NCBI GenBank assembly: GCA_964016885.1
Contig: OZ024740.1
Span: 212,784,001-212,848,000 of the forward strand
Length of the DNA stretch: 64,000 nucleotides
Direction: 5' to 3'
Origin: Eledone cirrhosa
Lineage: Eukaryota
Below, piece by piece: positions 2,516 through 41,309 of the stretch (the stretch's first letter is position 1; every line of letters starts with the position of its first letter). The notes under the pieces were generated by a model. The model had not been told where the DNA came from, ran no database searches, and saw nothing but the letters and a program-made list of their open reading frames with translations. A program made the translations under genes and the position numbers.

Positions 2516-11397
<8,882 letters not shown>

Positions 11398-11965
11398 ATT
11401 AAAATATTTAGAAGTGAAGCATATCAATTTGTTCAGGGTGTTTACATCTCGAAACATATTTGGATTTTAAAGTTTAAACTTATCTACGGAACAGGTTTGA
11501 TTTTGAAATTTAAATTTGTCTAAACACCATGGCCATTTGCCAATACTGTTTGTTTTTATTGATTTATTATTTTAAATCGAGATAGGCAAACTGTAATATT
11601 ATAATTAGTATATTTCATTCTAGCTAACTTAATTTCTTTTACAATATAAACACAGATATGTTGGTATTTGTGTTTCATCATATATATTAATTTATATTTA
11701 TACATATATATATATATATATATTCTTTAGGACGTTTTGGAAGTCTCAACAATGCAGATGGGTAATTCTCCGGGTAACAATATCCGGTGGTGAAGAGAGA
11801 GATGTAAGTGAATGTAGAATGAGATGTATAGTGTGTAGAAGAACGTAGGAAAGAGCGTAAAAGATAAAATTAAAATAATAACACGAGATAGAGTTACCTT
11901 GCGAGAGATTTAATTGTCCCTATATATTTTGGATTCACATCAATCAACTGGGGGGGGGGGTTATA

Positions 11966-22641: not shown

Positions 22642-22684
22642 GTCACTGAAGAGGTCACAGAATGTGTGACGAAAGAACTTTGAC
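22642..22684 (+). ncRNA. Minimal hammerhead ribozyme motif (right arm of palindrome)
   Basis: GTCA-CTGAAGA-G-GTCACA-GAATG-TGTGAC-GAAA-GAAC-TT-TGAC: 4-bp stem I, 6-bp stem II, CUU triplet. Confidence 0.78.
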
Positions 22685-23401: not shown

Positions 23402-24392
23402 TATCAAGGGCCTTGTTTCAGGGTGGTACCAGGGGATAAATCAAACCATATTTTGTCTCTCCCCCCCCCCCCCCCCCAACTTTTTCACAATTAAAAAACA
23501 AAGACATATCCCACTAACAAGGCATAGAGATGTTTTGAAAAAGATTATTTGTGAAGAATTTGCTAAATTATTTATTGACAACAATGATACGGGATATAAT
23601 ACATTTGGAAACTTCGAAACGACAATAAATTTACTTTATATGTTTTTATGCAAACGTCTGTTTTATTTTTTGTTTATTTGATATAATCAATTCTTTTTAA
23701 GCTTATTGTTTTATATCTGAACATCATTTGAATATTTAAATTTAATTAGCGTAAAATTTTGCTTATGTGATAGGGTGCGGGAAAGGCACCATAAGCAATA
23801 CTAACATGCTCCTTTAAGAATCAACAAATGTTGGTTTGTCCCACTTTTTTTGGCAAACGAGGCCCCTGATATATATGTATAAACATATAATACACACACA
23901 CACATACACACACACATATATATATATATATATATGTATTCTCTTCTTTTACTCTTCTTCTTCACCCACTTATTCCAGAGAGGGCCATGGGGGGTCCTCA
24001 AACACTCCTTCCAGTGGGTCATGTCAGAAGCAACCGTCTCTAACTGATCCGATTGAATCCCCAAGCGAGACCAGCCAAGCTCATCCCTCGCTAGTTACCC
24101 TCTCTCGCCTAGCCTCTTCCTCACACTTTCACTCACTCCATCTCTGCTACTCACCCTCTCTCACTTCCTCCCCTCTGACCCGTGTGAAATTCTTTTCTCG
24201 CTCACATTTCGCATGGCTTGGATGCGTCTTTCGTCTTCTCGTCAATGATTCGCCAGATCTTATGTTCACATGTATCACTGACTTGTTTTCTCATTTTTCC
24301 ACTCTTTACGTTGCCTCACCATTCTTGTTTGTTTACATGTCTCTCTTTCTCCACCCAATTCTTTTTATCCCAATAACTTATTTTAGTTATTG

Positions 24393-24463
24393 TTCGCGCT
24401 GGCCTGAGGTATCTGATCTTTAATGCGAAGAAATACCTATGATGGCCAGAAGATCACTGATGA
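24393..24463 (+). ncRNA. Structured RNA candidate: kink-turn hairpin with two pseudoknot pairings and hammerhead core elements
   Basis: TTCGCG/TGCGAA, CTGGCC/GGCCAG, GGTAT/ATACC and TGATCTT/AAGATCA pairings; CTGA opposite TATGAT (k-turn); GAAA, ATC and CTGATGA at the helix junctions. Confidence 0.55.
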
Positions 24464-24496
24464 TGGATAGTCGTGGCTTCTTGGTCTATTTTGTAA

Positions 24497-24542
<46 letters not shown>

Positions 24543-36109: not shown

Positions 36110-39100
36110 ATGTGCTAACACGGCACCACAACACATGCCACGCCCATGTGGGCTAACACGGCACCACAACACATGCCACGCCATGTGGGCTAACACGCCA
36201 CTACAAAATATGGCACGCCCATGTGGGCTACCACGGCACCACAAAACATGCCACGCCCATGTGGGCTAACACGGCACCACAAAACATGGCACGCCCATGT
36301 GGGTTAACACGGCACCACAAACATGCCACGCCCATGTGGGCTAACACGGCACCACAAAACATGCTACGCCCATGTGGGCTAACACGGCACCACAAAACAT
36401 GCCACACCCATGTGGGCTAACACCGCACCACAGCACATGCCACGCCCATGTGGGCTAACACGGCACCACAACACATGCCACGCCCATGTGGGCTAACACG
36501 GCACCACAACACATGCCACGCCCATGTGGGCTAACACAGCACCACAACACATGCCACGCCCATGTGGCCTAACACGGCATCACAAAACATGCCACGCCAA
36601 TGTGGGCTAACACGGCACCACAAAACATGGCACGCCCATGTGGGCTAACACGACACCACAACACATGGCAGGCCCATGTTGTCTAACACGGCATCACAAC
36701 ACATGGCACGCCCATGTGGGCTAACACGGCACCACAACACATGGCACGCCCATGTGGGCTAACACGGCACCACATAACATGCCACGCCCATGTGGGCTAA
36801 CACGGCACCACAAAACATGCCACGTCCATGTGGGCTAACATGGCACCACAAAACATGCCACGCCCATGTGGGCTAACACGGCACCACAACACATGCCACG
36901 CCCATGTTGGCTAACACGGCACCACAACACATGCCACGCCCATGTGGGCTAACACGGCACCACAACAAATGCCACGCCCATGTGGGCTAACACGGCACCA
37001 CAACACATGCCACGCCCATGTGGGCTAACACGGCACCACAAAACATGCCACGCCCATGTGGGCTAACACGGCACCACAACACATGCCACGCCCATGTTGG
37101 CTAACACGGCACCACAACACATGCCACGCCCATGTGGGCTAACACGGCACCACAACAAATGCCACGCCCATGTGGGCTAACACGGCACCACAACACATGC
37201 CACGCCCATGTGGGCTAACACGGCACCACAAAACATGCCACGCCCATATGGGCTAACACGGCACCACAAAACATGCCACGCCCATGTGGGCTAACACGGC
37301 ACAACAACACATGCCACGCCCAAGTGGGCTAACACGGCACCACAACACAAGCCACGCCCATGTGGGCTAACACGGCACCACAACACATGCCACGCCCATG
37401 TGGGCTAACACGGCACCACAACACATGCCACGCTCATGTGGTCTAACACGGCACCACAACACATGCCACGCCCATGTGGGCTAACACGGCACCACAACAC
37501 ATGCCACGCCCATGTGGTCTAACACGGCACCACAACACATGCCACTCCCATGTGGGCTAACACGGCACCACAACACATGCCACGCCCATGTGGGCTAACA
37601 CGGCACCACAACACATGCCACGCCCATGTGGGCTAACACGGCACCACAAAACATGGCACGCCCATTTGGGCTAACACGGCACGACAACACATGCCACGCC
37701 CATGTGGGCTAACACGGCACCACAAAACATGGCACGCCCATGTGGGCTAACACGGCACCACAAAACATGGAACGCCCATGTGGGCTAACACGGCACGACA
37801 ACACATGCCACGCCCATGTGGGCTAACACGGCACCACAAAACATGGCACGCCCATGTGGGCTAACACGACACCACAAACATGGCACACCCATGTGCGCTA
37901 ACACGGCACCACAAAACATGCCACGCCCATTTGGGCTAACACGGCACTACAAAACATGGCACGCCCATGTGGGCTAACACGGCACCACAACACATGCTAC
38001 GCCCATGTGGGCTAACACGGCACCACAAAACATGCCACGCCCATGTGGGCTAACACGGCACCACAACACATGCCACGCCCATGTTGGCTAACACGGCACC
38101 ACAACACATGCCACGCCCATATGGGCTAACACGGCACCACAAAACATGCCACGCCCATGTGGGCTAACACGGCACTACAAAACATGGCACGCCCATGTGG
38201 GCTAACACGGCACCACAACACATGCTACGCCCATGTGGGCTAACACGGCACCACAAAACATGCCACGCCCATGTGGGCTAACACGGCACCACAACACATG
38301 CCACGCCCATGTTGGCTAACACGGCACCACAACACATGCCACGCCCATATGGGCTAACACGGCACCACAAAACATGCCACGCCCATGTGGGCTAACACGG
38401 CACCACAAAACATGCCACGCCCATGTGGGCTAACACGGCACCACAACACATGCCACGCCCATGTGGGCTAACACGACACCACAAAACATGCCACGCCCAT
38501 GTGGGCTAACACGACACCACAACACATGCCACGCCCATGTGGGCTAACACGGCACCACAACACATGCCACGCCCATGTGGGCTAACACGGCACCACAACA
38601 CATGCCACGCCCATGTGGGCTTACACGGCACCACAAAACATGGCACGCCCATGTGGGCTAACACGGTACCACAACACATGCCACGCCCATGTGGGCTAAC
38701 ACGGCACTACAAAACATGCCACGCCCATGTGGGCTAACACGGCACCACAAAACATGCCACGCCCATGTGGGCTAACATGGCACCACAAAACATGGCACGC
38801 CCATGTGGGCTAACACGGCACCACAACACATGCCCGCCCATGTGGGCTAACACGGCACCACAACACATGCCACGCCCATGTGGGCTAACACGGCACCACA
38901 ACACATGCCACGCCCATGTGGGCTAACACGGCACCACAAAACATGGCACGCCCATGTGGGCTAACACGGCACCACAACACATGCCACGCCCATGTGGGCT
39001 AACACGGCACCACAACACATGCCACGCCCATGTGGGCTAACACGGCACCACAACACATGCCACGCCCATGTGGGCTAACACGGCACCACAAAACATGGCA

Positions 39101-41309
39101 CGCCCATGTGGGCTAACACGGCACCACAACACATGCCACGCCCATGTGGGCTAACACGGCACCACAACACATGCCACGCCCATGTGGGCTAACACGGCAC
39201 CACAACACATGCCACGCCCATGTGGTCTAACACGGCACCACAACACATGCCACGCCCATGTGGGCTAACACGGCACCACAACACATGCCACGCCCATGTG
39301 GTCTAACACGGCACCACAACACATGCCACTCCCATGTGGGCTAACACGGCACCACAACACATGCCACGCCCATGTGGGCTAACACGGCACCACAAAACAT
39401 GGCACGCCCATTTGGCCTAACACGGCATGACAACACATGCCACGCCCATGTGGGCTAACACGGCACCACAAAACATGGCACGCCCATGTGGGCTAACACG
39501 GCACCACAAAACATGGAACGCCCATGTGGGCTAACACGGCACGACAACACATGCCACGCCCATGTGGGCTAACACGGCACCACAAAACATGGCACGCCCA
39601 TGTGGGCTAACACGACACCACAAACATGGCACACCCATGTGCGCTAACACGGCACCACAAAACATGCCACGCCCATGTGGGCTAACACGGCACTACAAAA
39701 CATGGCACGCCCATGTGGGCTAACACAGCACCACAAAACATGCCACGCCCATGTGGGCTAACACGGCACCACAACACATGCCACGCCCATGTGGGCTAAC
39801 ACGACACCACAAAACATGCCACGCCCATGTGGGCTAACACGGCACCACAACACATGCCACGCCCATGTGGGCTAACACGACACCACAAAACATGCCACGC
39901 CCATGTGGGCTAACACGGCACCACAAAACATGACACGCCCATGTGGGCTAACACGGCACCACAAAACATGCCACGCCCATGTGGGCTAACACGGCACCAC
40001 AACACATGCCACGCCCATGTGGGCTAACACGACACCACAAAACATGCCACGCCCATGTGGGCTAACACGGCACCACAACACATGCCACGCCCATGTGGGC
40101 TAACACGACACCACAAAACATGCCACGCCCATGTGGGCTAACACGACACCACAACACATGCCACGCCCATGTGGGCTAACACGGCACCACAACACATGCC
40201 ACGCCCATGTGGGCTAACACGGCACCACAACACATGCCACGCCCATGTGGGCTAACACGGCACCACAAAACATGGCACGCCCATGTGGGCTAACACGGTA
40301 CCACAACACATGCCACGCCCATGTGGGCTAACACGGCACTACAAAACATGCCACGCCCATGTGGCTAACACGGCACCACAAAACATGGCACGCCCATGTG
40401 GGCTAACACGGCACCACAAAACATGGAACGCCCATGTGGGCTAACACGGCACGACAACACATGCCACGCCCATGTGGGCTAACACGGCACCACAAAACAT
40501 GGCACGCCCATGTGGGCTAACACGACACCACAAACATGGCACACCCATGTGCGCTAACACGGCACCACAAAACATGCCACGCCCATGTGGGCTAACACGG
40601 CACTACAAAACATGGCACGCCCATGTGGGCTAACACGGCACCACAACACATGCTACGCCCATGTGGGCTAACACGGCACCACAAAACATGCCACGCCCAT
40701 GTGGGCTAACACGGCACAGCAACACATGCCACGCCCATGTGGGCTAACACGGCACCACAACACATGCCACGCCCATGTGGGCTAACACGGCACCACAACA
40801 CATGCCACGCCCATGTGGGCTAACACGGCACCACAAAACATGACACGCCCATGTGGGCTAACACGGCACCACAAAACATGCCACGCCCATGTGGGCTAAC
40901 ACGGCACCACAACACATGCCACGCCCATGTGGGCTAACACGACACCACAAAACATGCCACGCCCATGTGGGCTAACACGACACCACAACACATGCCACGC
41001 CCATGTGGGCTAACACGGCACCACAACACATGCCACGCCCATGTGGGCTAACACGGCACCACAACACATGCCACGCCCATGTGGGCTAACACGGCACCAC
41101 AAAACATGGCACGCCCATGTGGGCTAACACGGTACCACAACACATGCCACGCCCATGTGGGCTAACACGGCACTACAAAACATGCCACGCCCATGTGGGC
41201 TAACACGGCACCACAAAACATGCCACGCCCATGTGGGCTAACATGGCACCACAAAACATGGCACGCCCATGTGGGCTAACACGGCACCACAACACATGCC
41301 ACACCCATC
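36110..41309. repeat. 38-bp GC-rich satellite array, roughly 135 copies
   Basis: Consensus GGGCTAACACGGCACCACAA(C/A)ACATG(C/G)CACGCCCATGT in head-to-tail tandem with no unique spacers. Confidence 0.98.

Follow-up and report, generated by a model that had tools for sequence, protein, structure and literature searches.

A putative hammerhead ribozyme of permuted S-G-C order, with a kink-turn sequence, in a high-copy non-coding repeat of Eledone cirrhosa

Hammerhead ribozymes can be divided into three blocks, S, G and C, and an S-G-C type has been shown to cleave (Eckert et al. 2023, PMC10085705); types I, II and III all share the circular order C-G-S. In type-SGC ribozymes the linker between stems I and II is typically three nucleotides, and in the published alignments block C pairs over 4-5 bp with block G (PMC10085705). 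Non-circularly permuted hammerheads had been reported from unassigned contigs of metatranscriptomes and metagenomes, with one doubtful case in a bacterium. Animal non-LTR (non-long-terminal-repeat) retrozymes consist of tandem non-coding units with one hammerhead each, and occur in thousands of copies of low GC content with a link to Penelope-like elements (PLEs); those described are of type I only and were searched for by type I descriptors (PMC7229834; bioRxiv 10.64898/2026.07.22.740005). The Naiad elements were reported to be without a canonical hammerhead, only 'HHR_core' and 'HHR_half_core' being flagged (Craig et al. 2021, PMC8557442). Here we describe a motif of about 105 nt on the forward strand of Eledone cirrhosa contig OZ024740.1 (assembly GCA_964016885.1), at 24366-24469 of the 64,000-nt stretch from 212,784,001 to 212,848,000 that we analysed and call the window. 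We propose, with a probability of roughly 0.8, that it is a self-cleaving S-G-C type hammerhead residing in a high-copy, non-coding tandem repeat that likely moves with PLE help.

The motif, its copies and its predicted fold

When the sequence was re-read, all segments named in a preliminary description, which had bounded the motif at 24393-24463, were found in place, but the motif proved to extend outward on both sides to include a helix e and a hairpin P that had been overlooked. From its 5' end it contains the 5' strand of helix e (24366-24370, partner 24465-24469) and the 8-bp hairpin P (24371-24392), both arms of a predicted four-way junction; strand a (TCGC, 24394-24397; drawn earlier as 24393-98), which pairs with a' as a pseudoknotted extension of stem II; the 5' strand of helix b (24399-24404, partner 24444-24449), the non-canonical (NC) arm of a kink-turn (k-turn); and the non-bulged k-turn strand TGA (24405-24407: 3n U, 2n G, 1n A). 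Block S (24408-24420) consists of the stem III 5' strand c, GGUAU (24408-12), H17 (C24413) and the stem I 5' strand d (24414-20). The UAA linker from stem I to stem II (24421-24423), present in 136 of 137 distinct copies although this count was partly required by the core search pattern, leads to block G (24425-24437), which holds a' (GCGA; earlier drawn as 24424-29), N11.1 (A24429), GAAA (G12 to A15.1, 24430-33) and the stem III 3' strand c' (24433-37). The bulged k-turn strand TAT-GAT follows (24438-24443: L1-L3 UAU, G1b, A2b, U3b, as defined in PMC5061560), then strand b' (24444-24449) and block C (24450-24464), made up of the stem I 3' strand d' (24450-56), CUGAUGA (24457-63) and N10.1 (U24464), and finally the helix e 3' strand GGAUA (24465-24469).

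The blocks thus run S-G-C, an order that lies outside types I, II and III, as had been suggested; the suggestion that the order itself is novel could not be kept, since it is already described, with cleavage, in PMC10085705. The core is complete (CUGAnGA, GAAA and U16.1-H17), and the linear S, G, C arrangement with a short linker between stems I and II is that of type SGC. In order, full core, linker of about 3 nt, pseudoknotted topology and the extra helix that starts after block C, the motif resembles HRIMA-1 and the SGC variants (PMC10085705). It differs in stem II, which in the published examples is a plain helix of block C with block G (PMC10085705); here the block C strand departs to helix e after N10.1, so there is no multi-pair stem between the two blocks, and stem II is one base pair plus a helix contributed by a strand of the 5' flank. 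Because the proximal stem II is a single pair, we class the motif as an SGC variant and not as HRIMA-1. It differs also in that stem III ends in a k-turn, neither 'kink' nor 'k-turn' occurring in the supplement of PMC10085705, and in its setting, a genomic retroelement, whereas the published SGC examples come from metatranscriptomes and none from the genome of a named organism. No SGC ribozyme with a k-turn, a split stem II, an animal retroelement host or a link to Naiads was found in print in a search that excluded most subscription papers. Judged by its sequence, the motif is a variant of the SGC hammerhead class, whose order was already known.

Rfam returned nothing at its gathering score for the motif, only 12 weak unrelated matches, none of them a hammerhead, and the folding energy is ordinary (z = -0.75 over 101 nt); the case therefore rests on comparison among copies. 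In the 3.0-Gb host genome, a search with a 131-nt region gave 2,249 first-look candidates, of which the 40 scored yielded 41 matches at 92-100%, and a search with a diverged copy, from locus L022, gave 1,108 candidates; all 40 of those scored were identical, which indicates that this subfamily is young. A pattern for the core found at least 9,429 matches genome-wide versus 0 for the reversed control, and a pattern for the 5' domain only found at least 12,095 versus 5, both counts being lower bounds for their own letters. The motif thus has about 10,000 copies in the genome, one of them in the window. When 30 loci, several of them neighbours within one insertion, were chosen on the 5' domain only, the motif was complete and its core intact in 20, and the other 10 had scattered, differing lesions. 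In a set of 14 subfamily representatives, all 11 core columns were invariant, compared with 13 of 241 body columns, a comparison that is partly circular, as the representatives were found by the core pattern and truncated rows depress the body figure. H17 was C in 81 copies, A in 53, U in 2 and G in 1, its being other than G in 136 of 137 reflecting in part the search pattern. The region of the window also exists as an inverted duplicate about 331 kb away (L002, G000:C1:212475914-212479044; 96-97% identity over 3 kb).

To compare the helices we used two alignments, A1, with 30 hand-picked copies taken mainly from 83 distinct ones for subfamily spread, and A2, with 30 copies including subfamilies found without the core and about half of its rows common to A1. 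Double-sided changes occurred in 19 of 37 pairs of A1, a value reached in 0 of 500 shuffles (a control inflated by the use of related, hand-picked rows), with 2-9 pairs in slid controls, and in 19 of 34 pairs of A2, where 95% of cells were paired. For A2, changes on both sides were seen in five of six pairs of helix b, five of six of stem I, five of seven stem pairs of hairpin P, one of five pairs of stem III (U-A to C-G in 4 of 30 rows) and one of four pairs of a/a' (two rows, with 95% of cells paired); helix e had one in four, a G-C/A-U swap in 7-8 of 30 rows. RNAalifold recovered e, P, b and III unaided. Covariation of all four helices that had been drawn before was thus obtained unequally, being strong for b/b' and d/d' (stem I), limited to one pair for c/c' (stem III) and weak for a/a'. 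In the window copy the nested helices e, P, b and III each had pair probabilities of 0.95-1.0 (0.98 for helix e), and the loop of stem III is engaged in two pseudoknots, stem I and a/a'. Because the core matches outnumber the control 9,429 to 0 and the helices covary among subfamilies, we regard the motif as far beyond chance.

The a/a' helix had been drawn with 6 bp. A conserved 4-bp helix, TCGC/GCGA, survives, but the sixth pair (T24393-A24429) occurs in only 8 of the 26 rows that have letters there, and the 6-bp form was dropped because its covariation was not above shuffles, 142 of 500 of which covaried as strongly, with barely any covariation within this genome. We also dropped a pairing of b' with a downstream CTGGCT, as the downstream letters differ in other subfamilies. 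Next to the core, N10.1 (which follows CUGAUGA) can pair with N11.1 (which precedes GAAA) in 121 of 137 copies (A-U 64, U-A 34, G-U 16, G-C 7) and in 25 of 30 A2 rows, with four pair types, and neither base is fixed by any search pattern. It had been thought that this link would close only if 24463 were joined to 24393 in a circular or tandem RNA; no such join is needed, because U24464 is the next base of the linear RNA and pairs there with A24429. Beyond this pair stem II continues only through the second strand, a/a', which covaries weakly in this genome. We infer a four-way junction in which stem II consists of the 10.1-11.1 pair and a/a' in one stack and in which e/e' stacks on P.

The proposal of a box C/D-type k-turn between b/b' and c/c' was borne out at the sequence level, as the pattern is kept across copies and both flanking helices covary. 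A 3-nt bulge is followed by G.A and A.G, G1b.A1n being present in 133 of 137 copies and A2b.G2n in 126; the GA of the bulged strand is part of the core search pattern, and the opposite strand is free of pattern constraint. The 3b.3n position varies (U.U 89, A.A 16, U.G 11, C.U 10, A.G 6). The box C/D k-turn has U.U at 3b.3n, as do most copies here. In one subfamily 2n is U, as in Kt-23 (PMC5061560). Like the standard k-turns (box C/D, U4, Kt-7, Kt-23; PMC5061560) this one has a canonical (C) helix, a 3-nt bulge, G.A, A.G and an NC helix; unlike them, it lies on a ribozyme stem, its kinked shape and protein binding being predictions. The k-turn would cap stem III and, we infer, turn helix b back towards the distal ends of stems I and II.

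Signs of cleavage and alternative explanations

If the ribozyme is active, tandem transcripts would be cut after H17 (C24413) in every unit to give monomers. These may become circular and would be copied into (TA)n by a PLE reverse transcriptase-endonuclease. Genomic junctions located exactly after H17 were found 59 times, versus 0 in the control, each joined to one internal position without microhomology; at one locus, L215, three such junctions are 320 and 319 nt apart. These junctions are possibly a fossil of cleavage at H17. At L215 (G000:C4:65372500-65376000) and L216 (C1:214794500-214798000), tandem sub-units of 319-320 nt each end exactly at the predicted cut and restart at one internal position, a pattern that might reflect either a smaller circle or a transcription start combined with template jumps.

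Several observations weigh against a self-cleaving ribozyme, in addition to the inflated shuffle control and the meagre covariation of the 6-bp a/a' noted above. The proximal stem II is one pair, unlike the 4-5 bp of the published SGC alignments (PMC10085705), and it is mismatched in 16 of 137 copies. All six junction loci that were read belong to one subfamily, so one founding event is possible; the equivalent junction in the C17 subfamilies gave 2 matches versus 2 in the control; and 5' truncations showed no excess at the cut site, 3 of 124 falling within about 3 nt of it. Hammerhead cleavage was also dispensable for transposition of another PLE in vitro (PMC11167929).

These points bear on an explanation that we consider unlikely, namely that selection maintains a protein-binding scaffold, for 15.5K through the k-turn or for the PLE reverse transcriptase, and that the core, inherited from a Naiad ribozyme, survives as a relic that cleaves slowly or not at all. 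The single, at times mismatched pair of stem II beside the core and the dispensability of PLE hammerhead cleavage in vitro (PMC11167929) would fit it, as would the observation that box C/D and U4 k-turns fold with protein and not in ions alone (PMC5061560); against it, the core sequence is conserved among subfamilies that have diverged in their bodies, H17 alternates between C and A with G in 1 of 137, and junctions lie at the predicted cut. We think it quite improbable that cleavage occurs only in trans or in a dimer or circle, with a canonical hammerhead assembled from the core halves of two units, since every helix closes and covaries within 105 nt of one unit, the nested e, P, b and III are highly probable in a single strand, and T24393-A24429 holds in so few rows, even though the units are tandem, amphibian retrozyme hammerheads are known to cleave as dimers (PMC7229834), and T24393 is able to pair with A24429 in the window subfamily. 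The earlier idea of a k-turn switch beside a canonical hammerhead with a deleted 3' half, or a chance arrangement, we dismiss as very remote in spite of the ordinary z-score and the silence of Rfam on hammerheads, given the 9,429 pattern matches versus 0, the covariation that links block G to blocks S and C, and the lack of a GAAA half within 300 nt downstream in the window or after CUGAUGA in the aligned copies, which run instead into e' and the 3' end of the element. In sum, the preliminary picture of a k-turn-bearing, doubly pseudoknotted hammerhead in a Penelope-related element was supported, while its circular join, deleted-half switch and novelty of order were not.

The host element, its possible helper and its origin

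The window copy (24081..24503, + strand) is a single, 5'-truncated, non-coding member of subfamily A, whose full unit is about 570 nt; matches to other copies start at 24081-24085 and stop at 24503, with a different repeat upstream. At its 3' end lies a (TA)n run (24500..24540), the likely insertion target, and a TA run occurs no more than 110 nt past the core in 122 of 137 copies. Elsewhere the units, typically of roughly 530-630 nt, are head-to-tail and non-coding, spaced 445-672 nt (mostly 521-552 and 620-637), with tandem units followed by a tail at L003, L017 and L026. Copies show variable 5' truncation, inverted 5' segments and two alternative 3' ends about 45 nt apart; truncation, inverted 5' copies, a tail and a microsatellite target are the insertion hallmarks given for PLEs (PMC8557442, PMC11167929) and fit an element mobilised by them. 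No reverse transcriptase or GIY-YIG endonuclease open reading frame (ORF) was found within the units, so the element is not an autonomous PLE. As copies lie 2.9 kb apart in places, we considered whether they were pseudo-long terminal repeats (pLTRs) of one ORF and rejected this, the motif being antisense to or separate from the PLE ORF. The element shares with the animal non-LTR retrozymes its tandem non-coding units with one hammerhead each, its thousands of copies, its low GC content and its PLE link (PMC7229834; bioRxiv 10.64898/2026.07.22.740005), and differs from them in unit length, mostly 520-640 nt, and in having the S-G-C order where they have type I. By its sequence it works like a retrozyme but falls outside the described class. 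The window copy, which has one ribozyme only, is probably a passive insertion.

Retrozyme sequence is joined directly, without TA, to PLE sequence at three loci: L082, L091 (duplicated as L092) and L173. The joined PLE, with 28,837 candidates, of which 150 were scored at 95-100%, is abundant and young; by eye it is Neptune-like, having a CxxC linker and a GIY-YIG-like domain at its C-terminus. Its clade was judged in this way because Pfam returned no domain for L080 or for the two ORF fragments of L082, and GIY-YIG for L003 only. This abundant, young PLE with a C-terminal endonuclease may be today's helper. Two results speak against that role: in 21 of 30 loci the PLE has a canonical minimal hammerhead of its own, and the motif was seen within 1.5 kb at none of the 29 other young-PLE loci. 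On the minus strand of L091, near 4300, is a canonical PLE hammerhead whose first 14 core-and-stem letters are common to retrozyme subfamilies C/E, and e/e' may therefore descend from an ordinary stem II.

We place the origin of the retrozyme at the 3' end of a Naiad element, with less certainty, as for the present helper, than the ribozyme reading itself. Inspecting by eye a part of the 54 Naiad consensus 3' ends of PMC8557442, we found permuted hammerheads in 14, a lower bound for the set: seven are S-G-C with e, P and a/a' (Obim, Ovul, Amil, Aacu, Anas and two further records), one is another S-G-C, and six are C-S-G (two Pristionchus records, by file order, Nbra-1 to -3, and Hcon). In the octopus elements Naiad_Obim and Naiad_Ovul, again by eye, e, P, a, b, k-turn, S, G, C and e' follow in the order of our motif, and the apex of hairpin P is identical to it. 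Their a/a' has other letters forming five pairs, which adds the covariation that this helix hardly shows within the host genome. Strand a there supplies G10.1 itself, and CUGAUGA has no adjoining stem II strand, so the earlier drawing of strand a as stem II right up to GAAA fits the octopus and coral Naiad versions, by eye, but not most copies here, in which the sixth pair is rare. Naiads likewise have (TA)n targets, 5' truncation, inverted 5' copies and a tail, and differ in encoding an endonuclease-reverse transcriptase, the retrozyme having no ORF (PMC8557442).

Against a Naiad origin, no intact Naiad with this ribozyme was found in the host genome, where a search for one gave 12 motif matches, mostly decayed Naiad-like remnants; none has the ribozyme in its 3' flank, the one exception, in L206, being a retrozyme copy that stands apart behind a TA run, and L180 gave two short partial matches. 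The ribozyme of the retrozyme likely explains, on comparison of sequences, the 'missing' Naiad hammerhead. The 3' ends of nematode Naiads (Pristionchus, Nippostrongylus, Haemonchus; File S5 of PMC8557442) show, by eye, all parts of a type-CSG hammerhead, block C being enclosed by a helix; this type had been reported from two metagenome sequences. An older repeat family in the host genome has S-G-C order, a k-turn, a 2-bp stem II and an e/e' helix, without hairpin P or a/a' (L179 and L181-L187, around 1450-1560; 8 of the 9 matches of one search).

Neighbouring features and significance

Elsewhere in the window, other repeats, probably PLE pLTRs, contain canonical hammerhead-like cores, made up of CUGAnGA, a hairpin and GAAA, at 22646 (+), 21779 (-), 18170 (-) and 14416 (+). 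A GC-rich 38-bp unit, repeated 137 times with 94% identity, makes up a satellite at 36114-41308, and 2518-11399 is an 8.9-kb TA-based tract with extreme C-over-G skew.

We lean slightly, at little better than even odds, towards a wider interpretation, in which the topology would go beyond the six proposed block orders, stem II being formed from a fourth strand at a four-way junction and the fold being closed by a box C/D-like k-turn, with cleavage possibly dependent on 15.5K. This form, together with the related CSG forms, would be the ribozyme that went unrecognised across the entire Naiad clade, which reaches from cnidarians to nematodes and molluscs, and it would have founded a 10,000-copy retrozyme family missed by type I/II/III searches. 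The k-turn and four-way junction offer a possible answer to the geometry problem of the SGC fold, in which the end of stem III is far from the contact of stems I and II, and the motif may be a naturally protein-gated hammerhead that would serve structural studies and the design of RNA switches. About 10,000 copies place permuted hammerheads in an animal genome and, by eye, they occur also in Naiads of several phyla, so the statement that Naiads lack a canonical hammerhead becomes testable, with a permuted one in its place, and censuses of ribozymes and retrozymes that use type I/II/III descriptors would undercount.
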